Position numbers and translations under genes: made by a program
NCBI GenBank assembly: GCA_002448235.1
Contig: DIXF01000001.1
Span: 137,136-201,135 of the forward strand
Source: Syntrophaceae bacterium UBA6087
GTDB taxonomy: Bacteria; Desulfobacterota; Desulfomonilia; UBA1062
DNA length: 64,000 nucleotides
Direction: 5' to 3'
Notes under the pieces: model-generated
Told to the model about the DNA's origin: nothing
Database searches by the model: none
What the model saw: the letters and a program-made list of their open reading frames with translations, nothing else
Shown here: piece by piece, positions 7,925-47,800 of the stretch
Layout of the letters: each line of letters begins with the position of its first letter
How positions within the stretch are numbered: the stretch's first letter is position 1

Positions 7925-9653
7925 TGGAAAGAGACAACGTAGAAAAGGTCAGAAGCGCCATTGACATCGTCTCCGTCATTTCAGGGTACGTGAGCCTGAA
8001 GAAGAGGGGCAGGACACATGTCGGACTGTGCCCGTTCCACACGGAGAAGACGCCGTCGTTCCATGTGGACGCCGCCCGGCAGACGTACAAGTGCTTCGGG
8101 TGCGGCAAGGGGGGCGATGTCTTCAACTTCGTGATGGATAAGGATGGCTTGAGCTTCCCCGAGGTATTGAAAAAACTGGCTGACCAGGCAGGCATCACCA
8201 TAGAAATGCCGGCCAGGGGCAGGAGCTCTGAGAAGGCGGTGTTTTTCGAGGCCAACAAGTTCGCCCTGGAGTTCTACCGGAAGACGCTGCATTCCTCAAA
8301 AGGGGCGGATGCGATGGATTACCTCAGGAAAAGAGGCTTGAGCTCTGAGACCATCGGCGCTTTCGAGCTTGGATACGCACCCGACTCGTGGGAAGAGCTG
8401 GGACGCTTCCTGAAAACAAAGGGGGTGCCGCTGGAGGCGGCATGCAAATGCGGCCTTCTCGCAGAGCGAAAGACAAACGGGTACTACGATCGCTTTCGGA
8501 ACCGGGTGATCTTCCCGATAAGGGACATCACCTCGGACGTGATCGGCTTTGGCGGGAGGATTCTGGACAAGGGGGAGCCCAAGTACCTCAATACTCCCGA
8601 ATCGCCGGTCTTCAAAAAGCGGATGGTCCTGTACAATCTCTGCAGCGTCAAGGGGAACATCAGGGAAAAAGGCGTGGTGATCGTGGAAGGGTATATGGAT
8701 GTGGTCTCTTTGAGCAATGCAGGCTTCAAAGAAGCGGTTGCCACCCTGGGCACCGCCCTGGGCGAAGACCATGTTCGCCTCCTGAGCCGCTTCACGGATA
8801 AGATCAACCTGGTGTTCGACGGGGACAAGGCGGGACGCAACGCGATGGTCCGCTCGGTGGATCCCTTTCTCGCCTGCGACGTCATCCCCAAGGTCGTCCT
8901 GCTGCCCGATGGAAAAGACCCCGACGATGTCGCCAGGACAGACCCTGAATTGTGGAGGGATCTGCTCGGCATGGCTCCTTCCATATGGGATTTCATTTTT
9001 AATGAATCTTTTTCGACCAGAGATACATCAAAACTGGAAGATAAAAAGACTCTTATGAAGGAGCTCGTTCCCGTCATATCCCGGATAAAAGATCCGCTTG
9101 TCCGGGAGCTTTTAAGCCAGAGACTCGCTGTTCGGCTGAAGGTATCGGAGGAGGTGGTCACCCGGCAGATCACGAGCGAAAAGGCTGTTCCGGCCGGGGG
9201 CAACCAAGCGGCTTCCCGCGAGCACTTGCCCATGGATGAAATTGTCGCGCGGCTGATGCTCTTCGATGAATATGCAATCCGGGTGGTGAAAGGGCTTGAG
9301 ATCGCAGGCACCGTAAAGGACAGCGACCACTCCCGGCTGATCCGTTTTCTGGTGGAAAAAGGCAAGAGGGGCCTCGATGCCTACGACTGTCCGGATGATG
9401 TCAGAAGACTGGCTTCCAGGATCATGGCGGAAGGCGAGTTTCCCGGAGATGCAAAAAAAGCCTTGCTTGATATGGCTTGCCGGTTTAAGAGTCTTTCGAT
9501 CGAATCGGATATACAGCGGATACAGCGTGAATTATCTCAGGCTGAGGAAAGCGGAGACCGCGCACGAAGAAACGAACTGCTGAAAGCAAGACAGCAGAAG
9601 ATGGACGAGAGAAAGCACATACGAGAGTATGTGACGGAGGTGCTACAGAGCAT

Positions 9654-9657
<4 letters not shown>
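7924..9657 (+). CDS. dnaG: DNA primase.
   Basis: 577-aa translation. It has a CHC2 zinc finger ([13 protein letters not shown]...[11 protein letters not shown]) and a TOPRIM region (EGYMDVV, DGDKAG). Confidence 0.95.
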
Positions 9658-11372
<1,715 letters not shown>

Positions 11373-11609: not shown

Positions 11610-13022
11610 TTAGAAGGTGAACTCAAGAGCATTGGCCAGTATGTAAGCCGCATCAGGATCGTCTACGCCGTCAACGTCGTAGTTCATGTCTGCATAGGCT
11701 GCATAAGGCTTGTAGCTCAGGTTTTCGGTGATCTTGTAGTTTGCGCCAACGCCGAGTTCCCAGGCTGTTGCATCTTCATAGTCAGTGTCTTCCTGGTTGG
11801 ACATGACATAGGCTGCATAGGTGGAAATGGTCAGCGGAGCCATGCCTGTCTTGATGTTGTCCACATAGAACTTCAGCATGGTCATACCCTGGAGGTCGTC
11901 TCCGGGGCCGCCCCAGCAGAATTCATCGCCAAGGATGACGGTGGAGTTGAAGTCGTCATCGAAGTCGAATGCGGTGAACTGGGAAATTGTGTTAAGGCTG
12001 GTTGCGGCAGTTGTTGCTGATGCAGCGCCTGCCTGAAGTGCGGCGACCTGTGCTGCCTGGGCAGCGTTGTATGGAAGCGGAACTGCGGCAGCGGCAGCGG
12101 TAGCGGCAGCGGCCTGAGCAGTCAATGCAGCAGAAGTGCCAGCGAAAGAATTTCTGGCGTTCTTGTCAAACGAACCATAAGCAAATACGAAGCCGGGGGT
12201 CATGCTGTCCATTGCTTTCCAGAGGTTAAGGTAATATCCCCAGACCTTCCAGTGCTCTTTCACTGCTACGGTGTCCCATTTCAATTTGTAATCGTTGTAG
12301 TTCAACTCTGTCTCGAAGTTGATGCCGACATCGCCATTGAATGCCAGGGCGAAGTTTTCTCTCTTCAGGTAATCCTCACCGGGCAGAAGGCCGTCGGTGT
12401 CAACATGGAACCAAAGGGGTTTGATGAATACGTTTCCGACCTTACCAATGTAGAAGAGACCATAGTTATCGGAATCGTTATTCTCATCATCAGCATTCTG
12501 GCCAATTGCGCCGTTGTCAGTGATCTTCTCTAATACCTGGCCGAAAGCACCGAGCTTCGTGGTTTCGACGAACTTCACTCTCCAGCGGCCGGTCTTGTCG
12601 TCGCCGAACGTGGTGCCCCACTGGGTGCCGTCCTGGAGACCGACATCAACGGTGAGGACATCGTTGAATTTGTGTTTTACCCATGCGCGCTCGATGGCGA
12701 TGTTGTCGTCATTGGAAGCATCGTTTCCTTTGGTGTTCTCGTCGCCGTCAGCGGCTGCTGCGCCCCAGTAGATGTCGGTGATGGCGAGCTTGAAGTTCAA
12801 TGAGGTGTCTCCAGCCGTGATCTTCGGATAGAGGTTGATATCCTGCTCGTAGAAACCGAAGCTGCTGTCGTTGTAATTTGCATCGGTATCCGGAGCCGAA
12901 TTGTAATTGAACCAATACTTGCCCTCAGCCCAGAAATCACCCGTCATGCTGAATGTCGCCTGTGCATATGCCGAGCCTGCAAAAAGCAACACCAGCATCG
13001 TGGCTAATAAAACTTTCTTCAT
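11610..13022 (-). CDS. Outer-membrane beta-barrel protein (porin-like) with a signal peptide and a C-terminal Phe.
   Basis: Translation begins with a signal peptide, MKKVLLATMLVLLFAGSAYA, and ends ...ALEFTF. There is a low-complexity Ala-rich internal segment encoded by GCGGCAGCG-type hexanucleotide repeats at about 12085-12116. Confidence 0.6.
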   Translation of the reverse strand: MKKVLLATMLVLLFAGSAYAQATFSMTGDFWAEGKYWFNYNSAPDTDANYNDSSFGFYEQDINLYPKITAGDTSLNFKLAITDIYWGAAAADGDENTKGNDASNDDNIAIERAWVKHKFNDVLTVDVGLQDGTQWGTTFGDDKTGRWRVKFVETTKLGAFGQVLEKITDNGAIGQNADDENNDSDNYGLFYIGKVGNVFIKPLWFHVDTDGLLPGEDYLKRENFALAFNGDVGINFETELNYNDYKLKWDTVAVKEHWKVWGYYLNLWKAMDSMTPGFVFAYGSFDKNARNSFAGTSAALTAQAAAATAAAAAVPLPYNAAQAAQVAALQAGAASATTAATSLNTISQFTAFDFDDDFNSTVILGDEFCWGGPGDDLQGMTMLKFYVDNIKTGMAPLTISTYAAYVMSNQEDTDYEDATAWELGVGANYKITENLSYKPYAAYADMNYDVDGVDDPDAAYILANALEFTF

Positions 13023-15627: not shown

Positions 15628-16626
15628 ATGTTGAAGAAATATGAGAAGGCAAGCGAGCAGGTCTCCATCAAAGGAGTTTTAAAGGCACGGGAAGCCATTT
15701 CTCACTATATCCGGCAGACCAACCTCACGTACTACTCGGAGCTCAGCAGGCTGCTCGGCTGCGATGCCTTTGTCAAGCACGAGAATCACATGCCGACCGG
15801 CTCGTTCAAGATACGGGGCGCCATCAATTTCTTCCATACCATCCCCAAAGAGAAGGTTGAGAGCGGGGTCCTGGTCTCCACCCGGGGAAATCACGGCCTG
15901 GCCATGGCCTGGGCCGCACGGTGGTTCAATGTTCCCTGTACCGTTGTCGTCCCCGAGAACAACAACCCCGAGACCAACCGCATCATCGAAAGCTTCGGCT
16001 CGGAGCTCATCGAGCACGGCAAGGATTTTTACGACGCCCAGTTCTACTGCGACGAGCTTGTCGCCTCCGCAGGGTATTATTACGTGGAGCAGGGCAACGA
16101 GCCCGAGATGCTCAACGGGATCGGAACCATGGGGCTGGAGATCTTCGAAGAGCTGAGCGATGTTGATGTCATTATCTGCCCCATCGGAGGGGGCGCCGGG
16201 TGCGCATCGCTCCTCAAGGTGGCGAGTGCGATCAACCCGGGGGTAGAGATCATCGGGGTCCAGGCGGAAAAAGCACCGGCCTTCTCGCGATCGCTCCAGG
16301 AGGGAGACTGGGTCGTCATCGACAAGGCCGAAACCATAGCGGACGGGTTGGCCGCCCGGAGCGTTTTTCAGCTGCCGTACATGATCATGAAGGACCATAT
16401 CAAAGATGTCGTGCTGCTGACCGAAGACGAGATCCTCGAGGGGATAGGCCTCGCGCTTACAACGACGCATAATCTTGCCGAAGCGGCAGGGTCCGCCTCG
16501 ATCATGGCTGCAATGAAAAGGAAGGAAAAGCTCGCGGGCAAAAAAGTTGCACTGATCATGTCGGGAGGCAATCTCGACAGGAGCCATCTCGATCAGGCCC
16601 TGCAGTATTCGGCGGGCAAGCGGTAA
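15628..16626 (+). CDS. PLP-dependent threonine/serine dehydratase (tryptophan-synthase-beta fold).
   Basis: PLP lysine motif HMPTGSFKIRGAINF and a Gly-rich loop ICPIGGGAG. Length is 332 aa. Confidence 0.75.
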   Translation: MLKKYEKASEQVSIKGVLKAREAISHYIRQTNLTYYSELSRLLGCDAFVKHENHMPTGSFKIRGAINFFHTIPKEKVESGVLVSTRGNHGLAMAWAARWFNVPCTVVVPENNNPETNRIIESFGSELIEHGKDFYDAQFYCDELVASAGYYYVEQGNEPEMLNGIGTMGLEIFEELSDVDVIICPIGGGAGCASLLKVASAINPGVEIIGVQAEKAPAFSRSLQEGDWVVIDKAETIADGLAARSVFQLPYMIMKDHIKDVVLLTEDEILEGIGLALTTTHNLAEAAGSASIMAAMKRKEKLAGKKVALIMSGGNLDRSHLDQALQYSAGKR

Positions 16627-16628
16627 GG

Positions 16629-17549
16629 CTATTCTTCCGCTTCGAAATCGTCCAGGGAATCGAAGTAGGATTCCCACCGTGCGTTGATAAGCTTCTGGAC
16701 CCGTTCGATCTCTTCTTCGGGCACGAGGGTGAATCTGCCCTGCGACTTGAAATATTCCCGCACCGGCAGCAGCTTTCTCTTGTCCATGAGCTTGCGCGAC
16801 GCGCCGGTGTGGCGCAAACGGCCGTGTTCTCTTTCCCAGAGCTCGAACAGGCCTGTCTCCACGGCGAGCTTGCCTACCTTGACCGAATATCGCGGTTCGA
16901 ATCCCCATCCGGGCGGGCACGGGGTGTGAATATGGATGTATTTTACGCCCGAGAAGGTCAATGCCTTCCGGATCTTGTCATAGAGGTCCAGCGGATAGGC
17001 CGCCGAGGTGGTTGCGACATATTCGATCTCGTGGGCTGCCATGATGGCCGCCACGTCCTTCTTGGCCTGGAGCTTTCCTTTGATGGGCGTATTCGCCGTG
17101 ATCGCTCCCTTAGGCGTCGTGCCCGAGCGCTGGACGCCGGTGTTCATATACCCCTCGTTGTCGTAGCAGATATAAAGGAAGTCATCGCCCCGTTCGCACG
17201 CCCCAGAGAGCGCCTGAAGGCCGATGTCGCTCGTGCCGCCGTCTCCTGCCCATCCCACGACGTTGATCCCTTTCTTCCCCTGGGACCTCAAGGCAGCGAG
17301 CACGCCGGTGGATGCCGCGGCGGTGGAGGCAAAGGTGACGTTCAATGACGGGATCTTCGTTGCGGCAATGGGGTAGAGCCCCTGGAGCACGGTCAGGCAG
17401 CTCGGCGGCACCACGATGATCGTGTCGGCGCCGAGCGCCTTGAGCCCTATCCGGTAGGCGATGCCAAGGCCGCATCCTGCGCATGCCCTGTTGCCGGGGT
17501 GTACGAGTTCCTCTTCGGGAAGGCTCAAGATATTGGTTTTTACCTGCAT
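16629..17549 (-). CDS. 2-oxoacid:ferredoxin oxidoreductase, beta subunit (TPP-binding).
   Basis: The N-terminus ...HPGNRACAGCGLGIAY and a GDGG region are typical of the PorB/VorB TPP-binding subunit. Confidence 0.85.
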   Translation of the reverse strand: MQVKTNILSLPEEELVHPGNRACAGCGLGIAYRIGLKALGADTIIVVPPSCLTVLQGLYPIAATKIPSLNVTFASTAAASTGVLAALRSQGKKGINVVGWAGDGGTSDIGLQALSGACERGDDFLYICYDNEGYMNTGVQRSGTTPKGAITANTPIKGKLQAKKDVAAIMAAHEIEYVATTSAAYPLDLYDKIRKALTFSGVKYIHIHTPCPPGWGFEPRYSVKVGKLAVETGLFELWEREHGRLRHTGASRKLMDKRKLLPVREYFKSQGRFTLVPEEEIERVQKLINARWESYFDSLDDFEAEE

Positions 17550-19677: not shown

Positions 19678-19910
19678 AGCTCACCTACCCGTGATTATCG
19701 GCAGCATACAGGAGGGACTCCCGCAGCATTCGAATCCGGCCGCGTAAAACTATACACTAGTTGCGGTATTTAATCAACGGAGGCGAATCAGGGCAGGGCA
19801 GTACCGGGTAGAACTCTTTGAGGAAGCGCCCGGCCCTGCCAAGGCACGCACCTTGCATAATTATCAGGCATGTTTACAGGGAAGAGGTTTTCACCAGAGG
19901 AGGAGATATC

Positions 19911-20891
19911 ATGATCAGCAGGGAAGCCAGAAGGGTCCGAAGCAAAGAAGGTTTTATCCCGGACGACCTGTCGCAGAACAGGTCGCTGGCGCTTTTCACC
20001 GAGAGCATCGTCTCTCTGCTGTCGAGTCCTTCCCTGAGCAGCGCCATGATCGATCTCGTATCCCTGATGGGGCAGACATTCCCACTGGCCGCGCCCGCGC
20101 TCTACATCAGCATGAATGGGTCCCAGGCACAGGCATATTCCGTGCTCGACCGAAACGGGGTCGGGCCGGGCGATGCCGGGAGGGTATTGGGGCACAACCG
20201 CTTCAACTATATCCCGGTCCCGGTGGGAGGCCATCCTCCGCTCATACAGCGCCGGGTCGATATGCTGCTCGTTGATACTCCTGTCACCAAGGTTGTCCTG
20301 TCGATAAACTCAGGAATCCATGACGGAATATTCCGCGAATGGGTCAAAATCTTGACGCCGGCCGTTTCCAAGCTCATGGACAATGAGGTGCTCCTCAAGA
20401 TGGCCTACCGGGACGGGCTTACGGGCCTGCTCAACTTTCGTGCATTCGAGGAGATGCTCTATGCGGAAGAGGATAGGGCGCGAAGATACCGGACGGCATT
20501 CTCCGTTATGATGGTAGATGTCGACTGGTTCAAGAAAATCAACGACAGCTACGGCCACCAGATAGGCGACGTGGTGCTGAAGTCGCTTTCAGACAGGCTT
20601 ATCCACTGCGTCCGGAAGAGCGACAGCGTATTCAGGTACGGAGGGGAGGAGTTTGCCGTTATACTTCCCCACACAGGCCTTCTCAAAGCCGTTAAGCTGG
20701 CAGAAAGGATCCGGTACATGGTCGAGAAGACGGATTTCATCGCCGGTCTGCATATCACCGTGAGCATCGGGATCAGCGAATATGAAGAGGGTCTGGAGAC
20801 CTGCGACCTGGTCAAGCAGGCCGACAAGGGCCTTTATCTGGCGAAGGAACGCGGGCGGAACCGTGTTGAGATGATGAAAGGCGTTTCATGA
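19911..20891 (+). CDS. Diguanylate cyclase (GGDEF domain) with an N-terminal sensory, GAF-like region.
   Basis: The ATG at 19911 follows the RBS GAGGAGGAG; the listed ORF starts upstream at a TTG. The GGDEF core reads RYGGEEFAVILP, with LTGLLNFRAFEE and DVDWFKKINDSYGHQIGD. Confidence 0.85.
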   Translation: MISREARRVRSKEGFIPDDLSQNRSLALFTESIVSLLSSPSLSSAMIDLVSLMGQTFPLAAPALYISMNGSQAQAYSVLDRNGVGPGDAGRVLGHNRFNYIPVPVGGHPPLIQRRVDMLLVDTPVTKVVLSINSGIHDGIFREWVKILTPAVSKLMDNEVLLKMAYRDGLTGLLNFRAFEEMLYAEEDRARRYRTAFSVMMVDVDWFKKINDSYGHQIGDVVLKSLSDRLIHCVRKSDSVFRYGGEEFAVILPHTGLLKAVKLAERIRYMVEKTDFIAGLHITVSIGISEYEEGLETCDLVKQADKGLYLAKERGRNRVEMMKGVS

Positions 20892-21715
20892 ACATAGACA
20901 GTCTGCTCAACTTGAAATTGGGCATCCATGCCCAGGCGTCCGGAGGGGGCAAAGTCCCGGGAGAGGTGGCAGAAATCCTCGACCAGGATCTGTTTGTCTT
21001 TGTACCGGAATCAGGCCTGGATGTTTCGGAGGGAACGCTCCTGAGGCTCTCGGACGGCCAGGATTCGATCCTTGCCAGGGTCAAGGAGATTACCGGAAAC
21101 GGCATCCTGATGACCATCGAGTGCTATGCGTCTCCCGGAAACGAGCGCCGGCAGGATGTCCGTATCTATGACAGGGTCTACTTCCACGCCAAATTTCTCT
21201 GCCGTTCCGACAAGAAATTCGAGGTCCTCCCCGAGGCAATGGAGAGGATAAAGGGCAACAAGCTCATCATCGAATCTTTTCTGAAAGGGAAATACGGTTA
21301 TGCCGGCTCCTACGAGCCGCCCTCCTCGCGGGAGCCTTCGTTCAACCAGTCGCTCTGGGAGCTGAACCGGAAGGTCGACCTGCTTATCCACATGTACCTG
21401 GCGGAAGACTTCATGACCCTGATGAAAACCTCGCCCAGGGACGTCAATATCAGCGCCTCGGGCATCAGGTTCATTACCAGGGAAAGTTTCCGTCCGGGCG
21501 ATCTCCTGGAGATCAGCCTCATTCTGCCCATGGCGCCGTTGCTCTTCATGAGGCTCGCGGCCGAGGTCATCCGCCTGAAACCCGTCACCTCTAACGAATC
21601 CGAGCGCTATGCGGTAGCGACCAGGTTCCTCCAGGTGGACTCCGAAACGAGGGAAGACATCATCCGCTATCTCTTCAGGCGGCAGCGGGAGTTTCTCAGG
21701 AAGAGGCAGGCCTGA
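20888..21715 (+). CDS. PilZ-domain c-di-GMP receptor with an N-terminal YcgR_N-like region.
   Basis: RxxxR motif (RRQDVR) and D-x-S-x-x-G motif (DVNISASGIRF). The start overlaps the GGDEF gene stop as ATGA. Confidence 0.75.
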   Translation: MNIDSLLNLKLGIHAQASGGGKVPGEVAEILDQDLFVFVPESGLDVSEGTLLRLSDGQDSILARVKEITGNGILMTIECYASPGNERRQDVRIYDRVYFHAKFLCRSDKKFEVLPEAMERIKGNKLIIESFLKGKYGYAGSYEPPSSREPSFNQSLWELNRKVDLLIHMYLAEDFMTLMKTSPRDVNISASGIRFITRESFRPGDLLEISLILPMAPLLFMRLAAEVIRLKPVTSNESERYAVATRFLQVDSETREDIIRYLFRRQREFLRKRQA

Positions 21716-24084: not shown

Positions 24085-24138
24085 GGCGGATTCTTTTCTC
24101 ATCTCACCTCCTTTGCCTGTAAAGACCTGTCCGACCGC

Positions 24139-25827
24139 ATGAAGGACCCGGCGGGCGCCCTTGCCGAAACCCGGTACGAGCCCGCTCCTGCAGGAATTTG
24201 CCTATTGCCCTTTAAAAAAACTCACAGTATGGTATGCGCCATGGATTTCAGAGGTGCTATGTGTGCGTGGTGCAGGCTGAGTAAAGGACCGGCCGAAGAC
24301 TGCATCCCATGCCCCCGCTTCCGCAAGTGCGAGCTCAAGGAAAACCTTGTGCTCGATTCCGAGATATTTTGCGGGATGTGCAAAAACAGAGACGACGCCG
24401 GGCTTCGCGTGTTCTGCGAGACCAACAGAAAACTCCAGAAAGATTCCGATGAGCCGTTCGACTGTTACCGGTACGATCCCGACATACAGCCCCCGAAAGA
24501 AAGCCAGGCACACGTCGTCACGGTATTTCCGACGCATCGCGGGAAAGTATGCCTCGTGCGCCGGAGCGGGAAGGTCGGAACATACCAAAGACGCTGGTCA
24601 GGGATCAGCGGGTACCTCGAAGGCGATCCGGGAGAGCACTACATGCAGGAACTGCGTGAAGAAACATCGCTGAAGCCGGGAGAATACGTACTCCTGCGGC
24701 GCTCCGAAACCGTGGTGGTTCAGGATGAGGAGCACGGCCGGATCTGGTGCGTGCATCCGTTTCTGTGCGAAGTTCACGACCCCTCCCGAGTTACCCTTGA
24801 CTGGGAGAATACCGAGCTCCGGTGGATAGACCCGGAGGAGATCAAAGAGCTCGACACGGTACCGGGCCTTTGGGAGGTGTACGAGCATGTATCGAGACTT
24901 CCTCTGGAACGCGAGCTCTCGGCCTTCCTGCAGGAACTGAGAGACGACCGCTACAGCGGGGCAAGGCAGCTCGCAGCCCAAGCGCTGGCTTTCCTCGGCC
25001 GGGTTGTCCGGTCATCCAATGCCGCGGGAACCGTAACGCTCCTGGACGATCTTTTTTATGCATGTCATGAAATAAGCCTGGCCCGCCCTTCCATGGGTAT
25101 CATTTCGACCTCGCTCGACCTGGTGATCCGGGACGCGAGGGCGTTCAGTCCTCTGGACATAGCGGAGGCGAGGCCACAGATCGCCTTCCTCGCAGCAAAA
25201 CACCTCAAGGAGATGGAATCCGCTCTGGACAAGGCAATTGAGCATCTCGACGCGATCGTGCCGGAGAGAGCGACCGTCCTGGTTCACTCGTACAGCTCTT
25301 CGCTGATTCATGCCCTGCCATTGCTGAAGAAGAAACGGTGCTCCCTGATCGTGACGGAATCGAGGCCCGGGTTCGAGGGAAGGACGACCGCGCATGTAGC
25401 GGCCGAGACGGGGATCAACGTCAGGCTTATCACCGATGCCTGCGCCGGTCACGAGCTTCTCTCCGCGGACGTTGTCCTCATGGGAACGGACAGCATTGAG
25501 CCCGACGGCTCGGTGATCAACAAGGCAGGGTCGTCCTTGATAGCCATGGCGGCGCATGCCTCGGGCGTCAAGGTATACTTTATCGGCGAGATCAGAAAAT
25601 TGAGCTTCAGGCAGGGAGGCGCTGCGCTTGAAGAATACGATCCGAGCGAGGTATGGGAGAACCCCCCGCACGGAGTCGGGGTGGGGAACCTCTATTTCGA
25701 CCGGACCGGCCCTGAGTTTATTAGCGGAATAATCCTCGAAAGGGGCGTCGTTGAACCGGGACGGATAAGGGAGATTGCCGAGTCTCTTTTTTCTCTGGAT
25801 GCCCACGGCGACCGCAAGACCTGTTGA
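24139..25827 (+). CDS. Fusion protein with three parts: a Cys-rich N-terminal region with several CxxC pairs, a NUDIX hydrolase domain, and a C-terminal eIF-2B/MtnA/ribose-1,5-bisphosphate-isomerase-family domain.
   Basis: Cys pairs CAWC, CIPC and CGMC. A Nudix-box-like sequence, GYLEGDPGEHYMQELREETSLKPGE. A C-terminal IF-2B family pattern, VLVHSYSSS...IVTESRPGFEGR...GINVRLITDAC...ADVVLMGTDSIEPDGSVINKAGS...AHASGVKVY. The start codon is uncertain; an alternative ATG lies at 24229. Confidence 0.6.
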   Translation: MKDPAGALAETRYEPAPAGICLLPFKKTHSMVCAMDFRGAMCAWCRLSKGPAEDCIPCPRFRKCELKENLVLDSEIFCGMCKNRDDAGLRVFCETNRKLQKDSDEPFDCYRYDPDIQPPKESQAHVVTVFPTHRGKVCLVRRSGKVGTYQRRWSGISGYLEGDPGEHYMQELREETSLKPGEYVLLRRSETVVVQDEEHGRIWCVHPFLCEVHDPSRVTLDWENTELRWIDPEEIKELDTVPGLWEVYEHVSRLPLERELSAFLQELRDDRYSGARQLAAQALAFLGRVVRSSNAAGTVTLLDDLFYACHEISLARPSMGIISTSLDLVIRDARAFSPLDIAEARPQIAFLAAKHLKEMESALDKAIEHLDAIVPERATVLVHSYSSSLIHALPLLKKKRCSLIVTESRPGFEGRTTAHVAAETGINVRLITDACAGHELLSADVVLMGTDSIEPDGSVINKAGSSLIAMAAHASGVKVYFIGEIRKLSFRQGGAALEEYDPSEVWENPPHGVGVGNLYFDRTGPEFISGIILERGVVEPGRIREIAESLFSLDAHGDRKTC

Positions 25828-25956: not shown

Positions 25957-27444
25957 ATGATGAATATTTACCAATGGATAAAGGATCATGCGAAAGAAAG
26001 GCCGGAGAAGGTAGCCGTACGTTTCAGGGACATCAGCATTACGTACGCCGAGCTGTTTTCCTTGACGGGAAAGCTGGGGACAGCCCTGAGGGACTCGGGG
26101 ATAGGACGGGGCGACCACGTGACGATCGTACTCCCCAATTCGCCGGAATTCATTATCTCATACATGGCTGTCGTGAGCGTAGGGGGAATCGTGGTGCCGG
26201 TAAATCCTTCGTTCACCTCCCGGGAGCTTTCGCACATCCTGAAGGATTCCGACTCGAAGGCGGTTGTCATCGAAGAAAGCAATTCCGCCACATATGACGA
26301 TATCCGCGAACTGTGCCCGCTGGGGACGGTGATAACCACGGGCGAGGGAGGGAACTTCTCCCAGTGGACAAGCGGCAGCGACCGGGGCATCATCGAGGAA
26401 ATGGATAAGGATGACGTTGCATCCATGATCTACTCTTCGGGACTCACCGGGTATCCCATGGGGGCCATGCTCACCCACGGCAACCTGGATCATAATTCCG
26501 ACCTGATGAGGCGGTGCGCCGATGCCGACGATACGGACACCACACTCACCATTATCCCGTGCTTCCACTCGTTCAGCGCGAGCGTCAACATGCTTGCCAT
26601 GCTGCGGTACGGCGGGACGGTCTACATGGTCAAGAATCTGGACTTCAAAGAGCTCAACCATGTGCTCACCAATGGCGGGATCACCTGCATATGTGCCGTT
26701 CCGACGCTGTTTTACGGGCTCCTGCTCCATCCGGATGTCCAGAGCGTAGACTACACCAGGATGAAGATCCTGATAGCGGGCGGGTCCGCGCTCTCCATGG
26801 AGATCTATACCGGGTTCAAAGAGCGTTTCGGCGTCGATCTCAGGCAAGGCTACGGCCTTACCGAGGCGTCACCCGTGTGCGCGTACAACAGTCCCCACGT
26901 GAAGCTGAAGCCCGATTCCATCGGTCCCGCCGTGCCGGATGTTCAGGCAAGGATCGTCGATGAGCAGGGAAGGGTGCTTACGCCCGGAGAAAAGGGCGAA
27001 ATCCTGTTCAAGGGCCCCAACGTCATGAAGGGATATTACAAGAGAAAAGAAGAGACGCGGGAGATCATCAAAGACGGCTGGCTCTATACCGGCGACCTGG
27101 GATATATGGACGAAGAAGGCTATATCTATATCACCGGGTACAAAAAGGATATGATCATCACCTCGGGCTTCAACGTATACTGCAAGGAGGTGGAGAATGT
27201 CCTGAATTCGATCCCCGGGGTTCGGGATTCCGCCATCACGGGTATCCCCGATCTCATGAGGGGAGCCATCATCAAGGCATACGTGGTGGCGGACGGCTCC
27301 GACATCACCGAAAACGAAGTGAAGCGCCAGGCCCGCAGACTTCTGGCCTCCTATAAGACGCCGCGCAAGGTGGAGTTCGTACCCCAGATCTTCAGGGACA
27401 ACAACGGCAAGGCCCTTATCGAGGAGATCGAGCAGAAAAAATGA
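25957..27444 (+). CDS. AMP-forming acyl-CoA synthetase/ligase (adenylate-forming enzyme).
   Basis: AMP-binding motifs YSSGLTGYPMGAMLTHGN, GYGLTEASPV and YTGDLGYMDEEGYIYITGYKKDMI. Length is 495 aa. Confidence 0.85.
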   Translation: MMNIYQWIKDHAKERPEKVAVRFRDISITYAELFSLTGKLGTALRDSGIGRGDHVTIVLPNSPEFIISYMAVVSVGGIVVPVNPSFTSRELSHILKDSDSKAVVIEESNSATYDDIRELCPLGTVITTGEGGNFSQWTSGSDRGIIEEMDKDDVASMIYSSGLTGYPMGAMLTHGNLDHNSDLMRRCADADDTDTTLTIIPCFHSFSASVNMLAMLRYGGTVYMVKNLDFKELNHVLTNGGITCICAVPTLFYGLLLHPDVQSVDYTRMKILIAGGSALSMEIYTGFKERFGVDLRQGYGLTEASPVCAYNSPHVKLKPDSIGPAVPDVQARIVDEQGRVLTPGEKGEILFKGPNVMKGYYKRKEETREIIKDGWLYTGDLGYMDEEGYIYITGYKKDMIITSGFNVYCKEVENVLNSIPGVRDSAITGIPDLMRGAIIKAYVVADGSDITENEVKRQARRLLASYKTPRKVEFVPQIFRDNNGKALIEEIEQKK

Positions 27445-28343
27445 CGGGGTGCGTGCTGTGTCCGAGGCGCTGTCCGGCCGACAGATCAAGGGCTGAAGGC
27501 GCCTGCGGAGTCGGTGAGGACCTGCTCGTCGGCTCCATCGTCATCCACCGGGGCGAGGAGCCGCCTCTGGTAACGGGTGCGGGCTCCGGGGCGGTGTTCT
27601 TTTCCGGGTGCCCGCTCAAGTGCGCCTACTGCCAGAATAGCCGGATAAGCCACCAGGCCTTTGGAAAAACTGTTACCGAGTCAGAGCTTGCCTCTTTCAT
27701 GCTCCTTCTCCAGGATTGCGGGTGCTCCAACATCAACCTGGTGAGCCCGACCCACTTCGCCCCCGGGATCATTCGTTCCCTGACCCTTGCCCGCGAGCAG
27801 GGCCTCGACCTTCCCGTCATGCTCAATTCGAGCGGGTATGAGAGCATTGAATCTCTCGAAAGATGGGAGGGCCATGCGGACCTTTTCCTCATGGACCTGA
27901 AATACGGCGACAACGAAACAGGGAAGCTCCTGAGCCGCGTAGCCGATTACTGGGACCGGGCGCGCGAGGCCGTCGCATACCTCTGGGAAAAAGGGGGTGC
28001 GTTATGCGTCGATGAAAACGGCCGGGCCTTGTCCGGACTGATCGTACGGCACCTCGTGCTTCCGGGCATGCGCTCGAATCCTTTTGCCGTGCTTGAATTC
28101 CTGGCCGGACTCTCCCTGGATATCCCCGTCAGCATCATGTCCCAGTACAACCCTTCTTTCTACTCGGGGACTTTGGCCGAGATGAGCCGGACGGTGTCAC
28201 CCGGGGAATACGAAGTGGTTCTGGAGAAGGCCGTCGATTTCGGATTCGCCACGATATATGCCCAGGAAATGGACTCTATTGAAAACTATACGCCCGACTT
28301 TGCATCCGATACACCCTTTGGGGACGGCTTGAAAATATTTTGA
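27441..28343 (+). CDS. Radical SAM enzyme, PflA-like (activase) subfamily.
   Basis: Cx3Cx2C motif GCPLKCAYCQN. There is an additional N-terminal CVLCPRRC...ACGV motif, as seen in activase/AmmeMemoRadiSam-type radical SAM proteins. The start overlaps the ligase stop as ATGA. Confidence 0.75.
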   Translation: MTGCVLCPRRCPADRSRAEGACGVGEDLLVGSIVIHRGEEPPLVTGAGSGAVFFSGCPLKCAYCQNSRISHQAFGKTVTESELASFMLLLQDCGCSNINLVSPTHFAPGIIRSLTLAREQGLDLPVMLNSSGYESIESLERWEGHADLFLMDLKYGDNETGKLLSRVADYWDRAREAVAYLWEKGGALCVDENGRALSGLIVRHLVLPGMRSNPFAVLEFLAGLSLDIPVSIMSQYNPSFYSGTLAEMSRTVSPGEYEVVLEKAVDFGFATIYAQEMDSIENYTPDFASDTPFGDGLKIF

Positions 28344-28401: not shown

Positions 28402-30150
28402 GTGCCGATAGTGATAGATGGTATGCTATCAATTGAAGACGATTACGAACGCAGGTACAACGAAGAGACCGGGGATCTCTTATATCAGCGCGTGCTGGCT
28501 GTACTCCTGGTGGGCATTATCCTCATCCCGTTCTTCAGCGTCCTGGATTATGTGGTGGTCCGTGAGCACTTCGGCCTCTTCTTTTTCTACCGCATTACCT
28601 GTTCCGGATCGCTCCTGGCGCTTCTGCTTGTTTACTATTCAAGGTACGGCAAAGACTCTGCGTTTGCCCTGGTGACCGTCGCCTATATCATTGCGGCCTT
28701 CACCATCGCCATGATGTGCGTGAAAATGGGCGGGTACTCGTCATTTTACTACGTCGGACTCATCATGGTCCTCGTCACGATCGTCATCCTGCCCTTAAAC
28801 GCTCCGCAGGCATTCCTTTCCGGGCTCATGCTCTACCTGATCTATGCCCTGCCCATCATCTTGCTCAACAACCCCAGTCCGGACAGCCTGAAAGTATTTT
28901 TCAGCAACAGTTTCTTTTTTGCCTTTTTCATCGTGATAACCACGCTTCAGGCATATGAAGAGACAAAGATGCGCAAGAGGGAATGCAGGCTCAAAACAGA
29001 GATGGACGGTCTTGCAGAGCGTCTCTCCTATTACGCACACAACCTCGAGGCAGAGGTGGAGAAGCGCCTTATCGAGCTTGAGGAATCCGAGCTCCGCTAC
29101 CGGGAGCTCTATGAGAATATCATCGATATCGTCATCCTCGTGGACCGGAACTCAAAGATACTCATGGCGAATCCCAGGTTTTATGACACGATCGGCATTC
29201 CATCGGAGCAGAAGCTCGATTTCAGCTTTATGAAGCTCGTGAAGGGGCCGGATACCCTCCTCGTGGAGAGGATGTTCGACCGTCTGCCCACCGAGCAGAC
29301 GGTAAAGGATTTCCAGTTCAGGGTCGAAAACCGCCAGGGAAAGATCTTTGAGGTCGAATGCAATGCCAAGTGCATCTACAAAGAGGGCGAACTCGTCGGC
29401 TTCCAGATGGTAATAAGGGATATCACCGTACGCAAGAAGCTGGAAAACGACCTGCTGGAATCTTATAAAAAGGTCCAGAGCGCACGGAACGCGACGATCC
29501 TCGGCTTAGCGAAGCTGGCTGAATACCGTGACGCGGATACGGGCGCCCATCTGGAGCGCATACGGGAATACTCGAGGGTCATCGCCCAGGACCTGGCCAA
29601 GAGAGCGAAATTCGCCGAGTACATCACCCAGGATTATATTGATGATATCTACAATTCGTCCATTCTCCACGATATCGGAAAGGTGGGCATCCCGGACTCG
29701 ATCCTGCTGAAGCCGAGCCGTCTGACCAAGGACGAGTTCGAGGTGGTCAAGCGCCACTCATCCCTGGGCGGAGACGCCCTCAGGGCCGTGGAAACGAAGA
29801 TCGAAGGCCAGTCCTTCCTGAGCCTGGGAAAAGAGATCGCCTATTACCACCACGAGAAATGGGACGGCACCGGATATCCCAAAGGGCTCAAGGGTGAGCA
29901 GATCCCCTTGTCTGCAAGGATAGTCGCCCTTGCGGACGTCTATGATGCCCTTACCTCAAAGCGGGTCTACAAGGAGGCCTTTTCTCATGAAAAGGCCCTG
30001 GAGATCATTCTGGAGGACAGGGGCAAGCATTTCGATCCGGAAATCGTGGACGCATTCATGGACCACGAGGCGGACTTCCGCAGCATCCGGGAGGAAATGT
30101 TCAGAGACCACGCCGCAAATCAGCAGAAGCAGGCAACCACACCGTCATAA
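28402..30150 (+). CDS. Membrane-anchored PAS/HD-GYP c-di-GMP phosphodiesterase.
   Basis: About six N-terminal transmembrane segments, a coiled coil, and a PAS region. The HD-GYP signatures are ILHDIGKVGIPD and HHEKWDGTGYP. Confidence 0.85.
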   Translation: MPIVIDGMLSIEDDYERRYNEETGDLLYQRVLAVLLVGIILIPFFSVLDYVVVREHFGLFFFYRITCSGSLLALLLVYYSRYGKDSAFALVTVAYIIAAFTIAMMCVKMGGYSSFYYVGLIMVLVTIVILPLNAPQAFLSGLMLYLIYALPIILLNNPSPDSLKVFFSNSFFFAFFIVITTLQAYEETKMRKRECRLKTEMDGLAERLSYYAHNLEAEVEKRLIELEESELRYRELYENIIDIVILVDRNSKILMANPRFYDTIGIPSEQKLDFSFMKLVKGPDTLLVERMFDRLPTEQTVKDFQFRVENRQGKIFEVECNAKCIYKEGELVGFQMVIRDITVRKKLENDLLESYKKVQSARNATILGLAKLAEYRDADTGAHLERIREYSRVIAQDLAKRAKFAEYITQDYIDDIYNSSILHDIGKVGIPDSILLKPSRLTKDEFEVVKRHSSLGGDALRAVETKIEGQSFLSLGKEIAYYHHEKWDGTGYPKGLKGEQIPLSARIVALADVYDALTSKRVYKEAFSHEKALEIILEDRGKHFDPEIVDAFMDHEADFRSIREEMFRDHAANQQKQATTPS

Positions 30151-45476: not shown

Positions 45477-46754
45477 TTAGAGAACCTCGTTCAGACGTTT
45501 GATGGCGCAGAATTTGCCGCACATGGTGCATACATCGTCCTTGCCGATCTCGCTGGACTCTCTCAAACTTTTTGCCTTGTCGGGATCGAGGCAGCACTTT
45601 ATCTGGCTTTCCCAGTCCAGTTTCTTTCGCGCGTTTGCCATCTCGCATTCCTTTTCCTGTGCGTACTTCATGCCCTTGGCAAGGTCTGCTGCATGGGCGG
45701 CGATCCGGGAAGCGACCACGCCCTCGATGACGTGCTCCACGGTGGGAAGCCTCAAGTGCTCGGCCGGGGTGACATAGCAGAGGAAATCCGCGCCGAAGTA
45801 TGCCGCGAGCGCCCCGCCGATAGCGCCTGCAATATGGTCGTATCCTGCCGCGCAGTCGGTCACGAGGGGTCCGAGCACGTAGAAGGGAGCCCCCTTGCAC
45901 AGGGACTTCTGAATGCGGATGTTCTCCTGGACCATATGGAGAGGCACATGCCCCGGGCCTTCGATGAGCACCTGGACGCCCTTGTCCCAGGCGCGCTGGG
46001 CGAGCTCGGCAAGGGTGACCAGTTCGGTTATCTGCGCGCGGTCGGTTGCGTCGCCCGTTGCGCCGGGGCGCATCCCGTCGCCGAGCGAGATGGTGATGTC
46101 GTACTCCGCCATGATGTCCAGAATCTCGTCGTAATGCTCGAACAAAGGCGATTCCTTGCCGTTCTTCTTCATCCACGACACGAGGAAGGACCCGCCCCGG
46201 CTCACCACATTGAGCAGGCGCTTCTGCGATTCGAGGGCCCTAAGGGCCTGCAGGTTGACGCCCGAGTGGATGGTCATGAAGTCGACGCCTTCTTCCGCCT
46301 GGTTCCGGACGGTTCTGAGAAAATCATCGATGGTCATGTCCGTGATGTCTCTGCAATTGGAGCTGAGCTCGAAGGCCGTCTGGTAGATCGGCACCGTGCC
46401 GATCATCACGGGGGATTCCCTGACGATCTCCCTGCGTATAGAGATGAGCTCGGCGCCGAGCGAAAGGTCCATCACCGCATCTGCGCCGTAGTGAACCGCT
46501 GCGCGGAGCTTCTCGATCTCTTCTGCGGTGTCCATGTGGTAGGGTGACGAGCCGATGTTTGCGTTGATCTTGGTGCGGAGCCCTTTCCCGATGCCCCGCA
46601 CGTTCGGGAAGGATCTCCCCGAGTTTTTCGGTATGGCGATGGTCCCTTCGGCAACACCCGACCGGATAATCTCCGGGTCGAGCCCCTCGTACAGGGCAAC
46701 GGCTTCCATTTCCGGGGTGATCGTTCCGTTCAGAGCGTCTTGTCGCTGCGTCAT
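45477..46754 (-). CDS. thiC: Phosphomethylpyrimidine synthase ThiC.
   Basis: ITPEMEAVALYEGLDPEIIRSGVAEGTIAIPKN...GIGKGLRTKINANIGSS is conserved ThiC sequence. There is a C-terminal Cys motif, CTMCGKFCAIK. The internal start MTQRQD is ATGA-coupled to the thiE stop. Confidence 0.95.
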   Translation of the reverse strand: MTQRQDALNGTITPEMEAVALYEGLDPEIIRSGVAEGTIAIPKNSGRSFPNVRGIGKGLRTKINANIGSSPYHMDTAEEIEKLRAAVHYGADAVMDLSLGAELISIRREIVRESPVMIGTVPIYQTAFELSSNCRDITDMTIDDFLRTVRNQAEEGVDFMTIHSGVNLQALRALESQKRLLNVVSRGGSFLVSWMKKNGKESPLFEHYDEILDIMAEYDITISLGDGMRPGATGDATDRAQITELVTLAELAQRAWDKGVQVLIEGPGHVPLHMVQENIRIQKSLCKGAPFYVLGPLVTDCAAGYDHIAGAIGGALAAYFGADFLCYVTPAEHLRLPTVEHVIEGVVASRIAAHAADLAKGMKYAQEKECEMANARKKLDWESQIKCCLDPDKAKSLRESSEIGKDDVCTMCGKFCAIKRLNEVL

Positions 46755-47800
46755 AATATCTCTCCAATCCTTGTGTGTATGGCTCTCATTTCTGCTGAAG
46801 GGTCCGGGGACATGGCGACGGCCCCGATGCATGCGACATTCCGGCACGGAATACCGGCGAACCCCTCGATCCGTTCGCGGGTGATCCCTCCTATGGCCAC
46901 GACCGGGTGTTTCGACCGGCCGACCGCCGCCCGAAGAGTCTCCACCCCGGTGACCGGGTCCGGATCCTCCTTCGAGAAGGGGGTGAACACCGGGCCGAAC
47001 CCGATGTAATCGACCGGCTCGGACCCTGCCTGCTCGACCTGGTCGAGGGTGTGGGTGGACAGGCCGATCAGCAGCCGGCCGCCTGCAAGCCTGCGCGCCT
47101 CCTTAGGCGGTATGTCGCCCTGTCCGAGGTGGACGCCGTCGGCATGCGCCAGGAGCGCGATGTCCACGCGGTCATTAACGATGAACAGGGTTTCGGATCC
47201 CTTCGTGATCTCCCGGAGCGTGCACGCAAGCTCCAGAAATATTTTTGAATCGGTGCCCTTATACCGGAGCTGCAGGGCCGGTATCTTCTCCGCAACGGCC
47301 ATCTCGGCCATCCTCCCGTACCCGGAAGGCGGATCGGTCAGAATGAGATAAAGGCCTTTGGGCAGAGTCTTTTTCCCCATGAGCTCCATATCGCGCTCGA
47401 TCTGGTAGCAGGCGTACCGTATCTCTTTCATGATGCGGGAAGCGGCGAGAGAATGGAGCTTCATCATTTCCTCCAGGACGCGCAGTGCCTCCTGAACCCG
47501 CTTCATGTTCGATCTGAAGATATCCTTCAGAGACGATCTCTTGTCTTCAAGCGCGCCCTTCGCATCGAACCCCACATCGGCCGATGCATCCCGGGAGGCT
47601 ATGAAAGGGCCGGAATCCACAGCGGAGGCGAGCCGGTGCCGCATGCTTTTCAGCTTCTGCTGCATGCGGGAATCATCGAGGCCGTACCGGAAGATATCCT
47701 CTACTACGCGCAACCCTTCGGTTGCACGGTTGAGGTTGGCATCAATGATTCTTTCACTGTCTCTGTCCATAGTATGAGCGTTTATTCCTGAGTGATGCAT
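46751..47800 (-). CDS. thiE: Thiamine-phosphate synthase ThiE with an N-terminal extension of about 130-140 aa.
   Basis: The C-terminal half carries ThiE motifs: LYLILTDPP, ADGVHLGQGD, IGLSTHT, DYIGFGPVF and VVAIGGI. The N-terminal region is unassigned. The listed ORF start at 47896 is impossible because it lies upstream of the riboswitch terminator. Candidate starts are 47800 or 47770. Confidence 0.8.
   Translation of the reverse strand: MHHSGINAHTMDRDSERIIDANLNRATEGLRVVEDIFRYGLDDSRMQQKLKSMRHRLASAVDSGPFIASRDASADVGFDAKGALEDKRSSLKDIFRSNMKRVQEALRVLEEMMKLHSLAASRIMKEIRYACYQIERDMELMGKKTLPKGLYLILTDPPSGYGRMAEMAVAEKIPALQLRYKGTDSKIFLELACTLREITKGSETLFIVNDRVDIALLAHADGVHLGQGDIPPKEARRLAGGRLLIGLSTHTLDQVEQAGSEPVDYIGFGPVFTPFSKEDPDPVTGVETLRAAVGRSKHPVVAIGGITRERIEGFAGIPCRNVACIGAVAMSPDPSAEMRAIHTRIGEIL

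Follow-up and report, generated by a model that had tools for sequence, protein, structure and literature searches.

A NUDIX–IF-2B fusion protein with a Cys-rich N-terminus and a Ser/Glu-type IF-2B domain in an uncultured Syntrophaceae bacterium

Introduction

The stretch of DNA analysed here (the window) comprises 64,000 nucleotides of contig DIXF01000001.1 from Syntrophaceae bacterium UBA6087 (assembly GCA_002448235.1; positions 137,136 to 201,135 of the forward strand). An open reading frame (ORF) of 562 codons without interruption was found on its plus strand at 24139..25827. The deduced protein combines a Cys-rich N-terminus, a NUDIX hydrolase domain and an IF-2B-family domain, and the question raised by this locus is what such a fusion does. 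The first-pass annotation, made from the sequence alone, read the protein as two consecutive enzymes. The NUDIX domain would make ribose 1,5-bisphosphate (R15P) from phosphoribosyl pyrophosphate (PRPP) or an ADP-ribose derivative, and the fused e2b2/MtnA-type isomerase domain would convert it to ribulose 1,5-bisphosphate (RuBP) in a RuBisCO-linked or a non-carboxylating pentose-bisphosphate pathway. Our analysis points in a different direction. The IF-2B domain is unlikely to be such an isomerase. We favour, tentatively and with somewhat less than even confidence, a protein made of an active NUDIX hydrolase, a nucleotide- or phosphosugar-binding IF-2B domain of a Ser/Glu subtype, and a metal-binding eight-Cys adaptor of the operon.

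The IF-2B domain

All three modules were recovered in the one ORF, as the first-pass annotation had described. Pfam identified NUDIX (PF00293) at residues 127–250 of the ORF with 33.5 bits (gathering cutoff 21.1) and IF-2B (PF01008) at residues 273–540 with 136.6 bits (cutoff 22.4), the latter over profile positions 3–280 of 280. An AlphaFold2 model built on a 76-sequence alignment gave predicted local distance difference test (pLDDT) values of about 97 over residues 121–555, which include both domains.

The C-terminal domain belongs to the IF-2B superfamily by its full-length profile match and by fold superposition, with a helical N-lobe and a Rossmann-like C-lobe. Foldseek aligned it with R15P isomerases at template modelling (TM) scores of 0.84–0.86, with Pyrococcus horikoshii PH0440 at 0.88, and also with eIF2B alpha, beta and delta. 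The best PDB sequence match was an R15P isomerase (E = 3e-25; 92 bits); human eIF2B-alpha gave 59 bits. The scores against the NCBIfam isomerase models are far below the cutoffs: 100.4 bits for e2b2 (TIGR00511; equivalog cutoff 314.1) and 57.1 bits for MtnA (TIGR00512; cutoff 279).

Residue roles were taken from crystal and mutant work on the P. horikoshii R15P isomerase PH0208 (PMC5789824), mapped onto the fusion protein via HMMER alignment and counted in 76 family members (Table 1). Compared with e2b2 isomerases, the catalytic Asp and the 5-phosphate and sugar ligands are in place, while the catalytic Cys and the complement of 1-phosphate ligands are not. Compared with MtnA, Ser and Glu replace the Cys of the THCNT motif and the Gln of the ...QG motif. 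The AMP-activator site of R15P isomerase (Arg124, Arg190, Lys194, Arg229, Trp231 and Asp290) is not conserved either.

Table 1. Functional residues of R15P isomerase PH0208 and their counterparts in the fusion protein (ORF numbering) and its family.
Residue in PH0208	Role	Residue in fusion protein	Occurrence among 76 members
Cys135 (Cys133 in Tk)	Catalytic; THCHS motif	Ser384	Ser 76/76
Asp204 (Asp202 in Tk)	Catalytic and sugar	Asp451	76/76
Ser137	5-phosphate	Ser386	74/76
Lys240	5-phosphate	Lys487 (25597-25599)	76/76
Asn214	Sugar	Asn461	75/76
Lys215	Sugar and 1-phosphate	Lys462	73/76
Arg65	1-phosphate	Arg316	72/76
Gln166	1-phosphate	Glu413	Glu 76/76
Arg22	1-phosphate	Ser273	Variable: S 47, H 17, R 4

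PH0208 carrying the C135S mutation still binds R15P but has no activity (PMC5789824). Since every family member has Ser at this position, the domain is unlikely, on its sequence, to be an isomerase of R15P or of methylthioribose 1-phosphate. The proposal that an e2b2/MtnA-type domain takes R15P over from the NUDIX domain was therefore abandoned. Loss of the catalytic Cys and Asp had been named by the first-pass annotation as evidence that would speak against its model; the Cys is indeed lost throughout the family, whereas the Asp is kept throughout. The characterized R15P isomerases (Tk-R15Pi, TK0185, and PH0208) share with the fusion protein the two-lobed fold, the 5-phosphate and sugar ligands and Arg65. 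They differ in possessing the catalytic Cys, Gln166, Arg22 and the AMP-activator site, and the fusion protein reaches one third of the cutoff of their family model.

A Ser/Glu subfamily of IF-2B proteins

The two replacements occur together. A regular-expression motif scan was made over 31 homologues, 30 of which are stand-alone IF-2B proteins. All nine proteins recovered with Cys at the catalytic site (THCHS, THCNS, THCNT) have Gln at the second site (...QG), and all five recovered with Ser (THSLS, THSVS, THSMS, THSHS, THSSS) have Glu (...EG). Two homologues of the HSYS type, P0081 and P0085, whose sequences were read by eye, also have Glu. Judged from these motifs, the Cys-to-Ser and Gln-to-Glu exchanges are coupled and define a subfamily of IF-2B proteins. 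Ser/Glu domains of this kind exist alone, as proteins of 290–321 amino acids, and fused to NUDIX.

One of these homologues, P0085, is a true orthologue of eIF2B-alpha (E = 2.5e-50 to the human protein) and has the motifs IHSYSH, ESRPECEG and GAEAV..NK. It aligns with both the fusion protein and human eIF2B-alpha, and via P0085 the following residues of the two could be equated: S384 and A129; Y385 and Y130; S386 and S131; G449 and G196; D451 and E198; N461 and N208; and K487 and K234. In human eIF2B-alpha these residues hold fructose 6-phosphate (PMC8187479). Tyr385 is Tyr in 57 of the 76 family members, and isomerases have His or Asn there. The eIF2B-alpha pocket binds AMP and GMP at low-micromolar affinity and ribose 5-phosphate, CMP and glucose 6-phosphate more weakly, but does not bind RuBP, ATP or GTP (PMC4787765). 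Because the pocket residues of the fusion protein correspond to those of the catalytically inert eIF2B-alpha, its pocket is predicted to be closer to a sensor of nucleoside monophosphates (NMPs) or 5-phosphosugars than to the active site of an isomerase.

Like the fusion protein, eIF2B-alpha (human EIF2B1 and the C. thermophilum protein) has lost the catalytic Cys and kept the pocket, with HAYS in place of HSYS, and some of its orthologues carry exactly HSYS and ...EG. It differs in having Glu where the NUDIX–IF-2B family keeps Asp451, in acting within a decameric guanine nucleotide exchange factor complex with eIF2, and in the lack of a NUDIX fusion.

The NUDIX domain

The Nudix box was located by HMM alignment to NudI. 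It is shorter than the canonical form, GX5EX7REUXEEXGU, by two single-residue deletions, and has Q170 where REUxEE has Arg; relatives have V, T or R at this position, usually Val or Thr. The box glutamates are kept, E171 and E175 in 76/76 and E174 in 75/76 family members. The dead Nudix box that the first-pass annotation had allowed for was thus not found, and the domain is probably catalytically active, to judge from these residues.

A profile search of the PDB placed the domain near NudI (1.3e-8), the uncharacterised 'probable pyrophosphohydrolase' 3ees (4e-7), CoA pyrophosphatase (1e-6) and NudG (1.5e-6), with a weaker match to ADP-ribose pyrophosphatase (1.5e-4). No NCBIfam equivalog matched the domain, and the sequence and profile searches for its substrate class returned only weak and mixed neighbours. 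The motifs that we take to mark particular specificities (the Pro of ADP-ribose pyrophosphatases, the Tyr of Ap(n)A hydrolases, SQPWPFPxS for NADH and 'NuCoA' for CoA) were absent or partly matched when inspected by eye. Stand-alone orthologues of this NUDIX domain, with about 50% identity, are present in several phyla.

The Cys-rich module and its fusion to the NUDIX gene

Eight Cys residues are invariant in 12 aligned copies of the N-terminal module (C42, C45, C55, C58, C78, C81, C93 and C109), with the spacing CxxC-x9-CxxC-x19-CxxC-x11-C-x15-C. The same eight are present in stand-alone versions. Further conserved motifs are MDFR, CPRFR, FCETNRxLQ and EPFDCY. The Cys motifs listed in the first-pass annotation are therefore real, except that its CxxxxC is not conserved, C64 being Tyr in most relatives, and that the module is about 86 and not 120 amino acids long. 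The metal or regulatory role that it suggested for the module is reasonable. From the Cys pattern, the module probably binds metal, as two Zn ions or Fe-S.

The module has no Pfam family, even at E ≤ 10, apart from one sub-threshold DUF5879 match in a single homologue. Its profile found 14 matches among 1.84 billion representative proteins: 2 fused to NUDIX; 11 short proteins of 51–164 amino acids; and 1 marginal match, repeated in a 3,553-amino-acid protein. At every genomic locus examined the module lies directly upstream of the NUDIX gene. Its fold is poorly predicted (AlphaFold2 pLDDT 60–75 in context and 56 alone) and appears helical. Zinc-ribbons (Pfam PF09297) N-terminal to a NUDIX domain are carried by the NudC-type NADH pyrophosphatases, to which the fusion protein is similar in the placement of a Cys-based, here predicted, metal site. 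The present module differs from them in having eight Cys instead of four, in showing no sequence similarity, in being predicted as helical and not as a ribbon, and in existing also as a separate gene.

Two arrangements of the module were found. In the split form, which belongs to the more divergent relatives (loci L004–L006, L018, L019, L021–L023, L027–L030 and L035), it is a separate ORF for 80–86 amino acids just upstream, whose stop codon overlaps the NUDIX start (ATGA). The fused, in-frame form is present in the window and in L001–L003, L011–L017, L020, L024 and L025, which represent more than 10 species-level genomes with 58–78% identity. A frameshift or assembly artefact, considered as a possible origin of the fusion, was rejected on the basis of this in-frame recurrence and of the clean ATGA junction in the split form; the fusion is genuine. 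A comparison of the two forms indicates that a translationally coupled small gene became fused to the downstream NUDIX gene.

Translation start

The start of the protein was examined by aligning the DNA upstream of the gene for 14 loci, namely the window and 13 relatives. A TTGCCCTTT...ACAGTATGGTA block is kept at the nucleotide level, and upstream of this block the relatives show no conservation. Between the block and the ATG the relatives have insertions and deletions whose lengths are not multiples of three, and the spacer is therefore non-coding. It is followed by the invariant ATGGATTTC, which encodes Met-Asp-Phe and corresponds to M35-D-F of the ORF (nucleotide 24241). The block contains a sigma-70-like promoter element, which ends 7 nucleotides before the ATG at 24241 and is present at the DNA level in all 13 related loci, including those with the Cys module as a separate gene. 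A generic promoter scan did not list TTGCCC-N17-TATGGT because its -10 hexamer is non-consensus. Such a position would imply that the mRNA leader of the fusion gene is very short or absent (near-leaderless). The amino-acid conservation (LPFxxTHSMV) that appears in some gene calls would then be conservation of the promoter and not of a protein, since the conserved block precedes a frame-breaking spacer.

In the AlphaFold2 model, the first 34 residues have pLDDT values of 26–37, and residues 1–49 are all below 50. Public gene calls disagree with each other. JGI gives 528 amino acids for an identical locus, that is, exactly from M35, and NCBI/ENA gives 522 amino acids for an identical protein, from M41 (24259). 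M41 is preceded by a Shine–Dalgarno-like AGAGG at 24249–24253; it was rejected as the start because most relatives lack Met at that position. A start at 24139 was rejected in view of the upstream DNA alignment and the 528-amino-acid call. The sequence comparison thus makes M35 the most likely true start. In the intergenic region between the upstream penicillin-binding protein (PBP) gene and the fusion gene, CACCTCCTTTG at 24105–24115 is the reverse complement of a strong Shine–Dalgarno sequence on the minus strand. It is probably there by chance, and no convincing minus-strand gene follows it.

NUDIX–IF-2B proteins in other organisms

The combination of NUDIX with IF-2B, described by the first-pass annotation as unusual, is less so than was claimed. 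About 80 of 85 homologue clusters carry both Pfam domains, Haloferax proteins included, and their lengths fall into two classes, of about 522–558 and about 410–470 amino acids. Within the deltaproteobacterial clade, the members of the shorter class are those with the Cys module as a separate upstream ORF. The architecture has already been annotated and catalogued, although the family is uncharacterised. HVO_1934 of Haloferax volcanii, originally annotated as an aIF2B subunit, is annotated as NUDIX plus IF-2B; strains deleted for it, alone or together with HVO_2706, showed no phenotype in the 12 conditions tried (PMC3828320). In the initiation-factor interactome the tagged protein was linked to no more than one or two partners, and a genuine R15P isomerase of H. 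volcanii, HVO_0966, is encoded separately. A survey of NUDIX proteins in fungi, published in 2025, listed a 'subfamily B' (fungi 84%, archaea 10%, bacteria 6%), most of whose members have IF-2B (PF01008) and which was studied by docking only (PMC12210691). A scan of species genomes with a narrowed alignment of the family added Gammaproteobacteria of the Chromatiales/Sedimenticola type, Sporotomaculum and Desulfoscipio (Firmicutes), Bathyarchaeia and Thermoplasmata.

HVO_1934 and fungal subfamily B have the same domain order as the fusion protein, NUDIX followed by IF-2B. Three Haloferax clusters (P0075–P0077), which by name, size and genus are inferred to be HVO_1934 orthologues, align with it over both domains at 31–33% identity. 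They share the Ser at the Cys site, the Glu at the Gln site, the Asp/Asn/Lys pocket and the Nudix glutamates. The archaeal, fungal and other bacterial members differ in that they lack the Cys module and do not adjoin ligase and radical S-adenosylmethionine (SAM) genes. At 42 loci outside the deltaproteobacterial clade, no conserved neighbour was detected. The three-module form, the orphan eight-Cys module and the cassette described below are new variants, confined to one uncultured clade.

In one Haloferax locus (L009; 6570–13493) the NUDIX–IF-2B gene adjoins genes for a metallophosphoesterase, a CofE-like F420 ligase and a luciferase-like oxidoreductase, and a gene of the 5-formyltetrahydrofolate cyclo-ligase family lies 3.5 kb downstream. 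A paralogue class of the latter family has been linked to thiamine metabolism. None of these neighbours was seen to be conserved at the other loci.

The gene cassette

The window has the background of an ordinary bacterial chromosome, with genes for DnaG, RpoD, MutS2, a class A PBP, flagellar proteins and ThiC/ThiE, and its nearest relatives are uncultured Deltaproteobacteria of the Desulfomonilia/Syntrophaceae type. As the first-pass annotation had noted, the fusion gene is the first of a block that also holds genes for an adenylate-forming ligase and a radical SAM enzyme. The gene order of this cassette is [Cys module][NUDIX–IF-2B][acyl-CoA synthetase][radical SAM][PAS-HD-GYP] (Table 2). The ligase is conserved beside the NUDIX gene in 24 of 29 clade loci, and the other five contigs end before it. 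The cassette is kept even where the flanks differ (L005, L013, L023 and L027).

Table 2. Coordinates of the fusion gene, its elements and its downstream neighbours in the window.
Feature	Position	Strand	Remarks
First 34 codons of the annotated ORF	24139..24240	+	Contain promoter element; most likely untranslated
Sigma-70-like promoter element	24205..24233	+	TTGCCC 24205-24210, 17-nucleotide spacer, TATGGT 24228-24233; from 14-locus alignment
Probable true coding sequence of the three-module protein	24241..25827 (stop included)	+	528 amino acids from M35
Cys-rich module	24241..24498	+	Residues 35-120 in ORF numbering, about 86 amino acids
NUDIX hydrolase domain	24499..24897	+	Residues 121-253; small MutT-like type
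Nudix box	24601..24672	+	G158-x4-D163-x6-Q170-E171-L-R-E174-E175-T-S-L
IF-2B-family domain, Ser/Glu subtype	24898..25824	+	Residues 254-562
H383-S384-Y385-S386	25285..25296	+	S384 at catalytic-Cys position of R15P isomerase/MtnA; S386 is 5-phosphate ligand
E407-S-R-P-G-F-E413-G	25357..25380	+	E413 replaces 1-phosphate-binding Gln166
G449-T-D451-S...N461-K462	25483..25524	+	Sugar-binding Asp/Asn/Lys retained
Class I AMP-forming acyl-CoA synthetase	25957..27444	+	Pfam AMP-binding and AMP-binding_C
Radical SAM protein	27441..28343	+	300 amino acids; Pfam Radical_SAM and Fer4_12
Membrane-anchored PAS-HD-GYP protein, putative cyclic di-GMP phosphodiesterase	28402..30150	+	Pfam HD_5, HD and PAS

A gap of 129 nucleotides separates the fusion gene from the acyl-CoA synthetase gene, whose ribosome-binding site reads GGAGG; in L011 the two overlap, the fusion ORF having its stop codon at 9593 and the ligase match its start at 9590. 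The enzyme is of a generic class I type, with 412 bits to NCBIfam PRK06187, below the cutoff of 476, and a feruloyl/fatty-acyl-CoA synthetase as the best PDB match (3e-79). The ATG of the radical SAM gene overlaps the ligase stop (ATGA), an arrangement that implies translational coupling of the two predicted genes. The radical SAM protein is one of a large, uncharacterised family that goes under the label 'putative pyruvate formate lyase activating enzyme' and on which no literature was found; its matches to pyruvate formate lyase activase are only remote. It consists of the core only, with no additional Pfam domain such as the SPASM-type auxiliary-cluster domain. The HD-GYP gene is present in most cassette loci. 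No match was found in L035, in L028 or in L003 and L015, the contigs of the last two ending before its position.

Two loci separate the modules. L035, from a metagenome-assembled genome of Desulfomonilia, carries at 7980–11154 an 83-amino-acid Cys ORF, a stand-alone NUDIX of 139 amino acids, the ligase and the radical SAM gene, with neither an IF-2B domain nor an HD-GYP gene. The constant partner in the cassette is thus NUDIX, and IF-2B is dispensable, because this locus keeps the cassette without it. In L073 (6001–9354), a stand-alone Ser/Glu IF-2B gene and a stand-alone NUDIX orthologue (45% identity; E = 5e-32) lie 2 kb apart, which supports a functional link between NUDIX and IF-2B that is independent of fusion. 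L073 is a 4.3-Mb contig, and a distantly related AMP-binding ligase (29% identity) is encoded 5 kb upstream.

None of the four cassette proteins matched a defence system in PADLOC. No riboswitch or other known RNA was found in the cassette by Rfam, and a consensus scan for internal terminators and promoters performed no better there than on shuffled sequence. The only Rfam match in the window is a thiamine pyrophosphate riboswitch (RF00059; 47905–48002, minus strand; 67.8 bits) at 47.9 kb, upstream of a ThiD2/ThiE fusion gene (46751–47896) and thiC (45477–46847). The riboswitch and these genes are ordinary and lie about 20 kb from the fusion gene. Cyclic di-GMP signalling genes stand at both ends of the cassette: GGDEF and PilZ (19818–21715) precede the PBP gene, and the last cassette gene (28402–30150) encodes the membrane PAS-HD-GYP protein. 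In L005 and L027, whose upstream flanks are different, the HD-GYP gene has stayed with the cassette. Elsewhere in the window, two minus-strand ORFs, 11610–13022 (470 amino acids) and 15679–16920 (413 amino acids), were without Pfam matches at E ≤ 1e-5. The second, at least, could be spurious and lie antisense to the region that in syntenic loci holds 2-oxoacid:ferredoxin oxidoreductase/PALP.

Possible functions of the fusion protein

NMPs and sugar phosphates are generic products of NUDIX cleavage. In the mechanism that we tentatively favour, the NUDIX domain would cleave a nucleoside-diphosphate-linked or triphosphate substrate to an NMP and a phosphorylated product. The IF-2B pocket would bind a 5-phosphoribosyl ligand, either an NMP (AMP or GMP) or a sugar 5-phosphate, by analogy with eIF2B-alpha. 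This ligand might be the NUDIX product or the AMP released by the neighbouring AMP-forming ligase, and its binding might tune the activity or assembly of the hydrolase or help to hold substrate or product. The eight-Cys module would be a lineage-restricted metal-binding adaptor that ties the NUDIX domain to the ligase and radical SAM operon and that began as a separate, translationally coupled small protein. While the architecture, start site, fusion history, residue substitutions, covariation and cassette conservation were read directly from the alignments and loci described above, we infer that the NUDIX domain is active, that the Cys module binds metal, that the IF-2B domain binds a ligand in place of catalysis, and that the protein is coupled, physically or through regulation, to the ligase and the radical SAM enzyme.

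Several observations weigh against this mechanism. Deletion of HVO_1934 in H. volcanii had no phenotype (PMC3828320), and our literature search found no biochemistry for any NUDIX–IF-2B member. The cassette is uninformative on the core role of the wider family, because no neighbour is conserved outside the deltaproteobacterial clade. The Nudix box is non-canonical, with its two deletions and the replaced Arg. The fold of the Cys module is of low confidence (pLDDT 56), and its putative metal binding is read from the Cys pattern. In bacteria and archaea alike, Ser384 and Glu413 are more constant than would be expected if a function had simply been lost, and this could point to another catalytic chemistry and not to binding only.

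The first alternative to be weighed is that the domain is still an enzyme, though one of changed chemistry; we consider it unlikely, if not strongly so. It keeps the general form of the first-pass proposal with other substrates. Glu413 would serve as the base instead of the lost Cys, and the substrate would be a 5-phosphopentose without a 1-phosphate, so that NUDIX and IF-2B would catalyse consecutive steps; examples are the conversion of ribose 5-phosphate to ribulose 5-phosphate, or a reaction on the ribose of ADP-ribose or a related nucleoside-diphosphate sugar. Such a substrate fits the acidic residue in place of the 1-phosphate-binding Gln. The strict invariance of Ser384 and Glu413 (76/76) with their covariation across the IF-2B family, the retention of all sugar and 5-phosphate ligands and of the catalytic Asp, and the fusion itself, together with the gene proximity in L073, typical of consecutive enzymes, also speak for it. 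On the other hand, Ser is a poor general base, the HSYS/EG motifs recur in an eIF2B-alpha orthologue that is not an enzyme, the cassette of L035 has no IF-2B domain, and no Ser/Glu enzyme of IF-2B fold was found in the PDB or the literature consulted. The R15P-to-RuBP route fares worse and is very improbable, although R15P isomerases lead the matches of the C-terminal domain in the PDB and NCBIfam, Arg316 (the 1-phosphate ligand Arg65) is kept in 72/76 members, and JGI auto-annotation names several of them 'ribose 1,5-bisphosphate isomerase'. Besides the Cys-to-Ser exchange, which inactivates PH0208, the low e2b2 score (100 bits against a 314-bit cutoff) and the separate isomerase HVO_0966 of H. 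volcanii, the changes of Gln166 to Glu and of Arg22 to Ser or His would disfavour a 1-phosphate, and the AMP-activator site is not conserved. Diphosphoinositol-polyphosphate (DIPP)-type enzymes are the kind of NUDIX protein that makes R15P from PRPP. The NUDIX profile is closest to the NudI and NudG types, and no DIPP-type enzyme was among the 60 matches listed. The first-pass annotation had proposed a search for RuBisCO, AMP phosphorylase, methylthioadenosine-salvage genes and phosphoribulokinase; none of these was found among the 37 window ORFs scanned, a set that left out several flagellar-region and small ORFs, and the gene calls of 13 related loci likewise contained no RuBisCO, phosphoribulokinase or AMP phosphorylase.

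The Cys module could instead be a ribosomal peptide substrate, or a redox or Fe-S partner, of the radical SAM enzyme, with its fusion to NUDIX being incidental. The module is Cys-rich like the SCIFF-type precursors, it occurs as a separate gene for 80–86 amino acids in the same operon, and it sits in this cassette at every genomic locus examined. This possibility appears quite improbable, however, as the module is always coupled or fused to the NUDIX gene, which it directly precedes, and not to the radical SAM gene. Features of a SCIFF-like system for ribosomally synthesized and post-translationally modified peptides are lacking: the radical SAM protein has no SPASM-type domain and the cassette has no peptidase or exporter. 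In more than 10 species, moreover, the module is stably joined to the N-terminus of an enzyme, which speaks against a cleaved peptide; the module may still be an Fe-S redox partner. A role as an aIF2B-like subunit of a translation factor of archaeal type seems exceedingly improbable, despite the IF-2B fold, the eIF2B-alpha-like pocket and the first annotation of HVO_1934 as an aIF2B subunit. The family is common in Bacteria, which lack e/aIF2 and the eIF2B partners, and this excludes membership in such a translation factor for the fusion protein. The absence of a phenotype in the HVO_1934 single and HVO_2706 double deletions and the one or two initiation-factor partners of HVO_1934 agree poorly with it as well. 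As for the substrate of the NUDIX domain, one speculative possibility is that the domain would supply the missing NUDIX step for ADP-thiazole in THI4-type thiamine synthesis; we raise it because THI4 shows a similar spread over fungi, archaea and anaerobic bacteria.

Implications

Members of this family are labelled 'ribose 1,5-bisphosphate isomerase', 'methylthioribose-1-phosphate isomerase' or 'translation initiation factor 2B' in public databases. Given the invariant Cys-to-Ser and Gln-to-Glu exchanges, these names are probably wrong, and the gene would mislead any pathway reconstruction that took it as a sign of a pentose-bisphosphate or RuBisCO-linked route. By the pairing of Cys with Gln or of Ser with Glu, the isomerases can be told apart from another branch of the IF-2B family, uncharacterised so far and represented in bacteria, archaea and eukaryotes. 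This branch appears to share its pocket with the metabolite-sensing eIF2B-alpha, and may therefore offer a simple bacterial system for the passage from an isomerase pocket to a ligand sensor. The orphan eight-Cys module with its ligase and radical SAM operon is a well-defined case of uncharacterised biochemistry in one uncultured clade. In a wider view, which we regard as speculative and rather unlikely, the Ser/Glu IF-2B domain, alone or fused to NUDIX, would represent an unrecognised enzyme class or a prokaryotic sensor of NMPs or phosphosugars that predates eIF2B-alpha. In the deltaproteobacterial clade it would form, together with the Cys module, part of a new pathway that depends on the radical SAM enzyme and the acyl-CoA ligase and acts on a nucleotide-linked metabolite.

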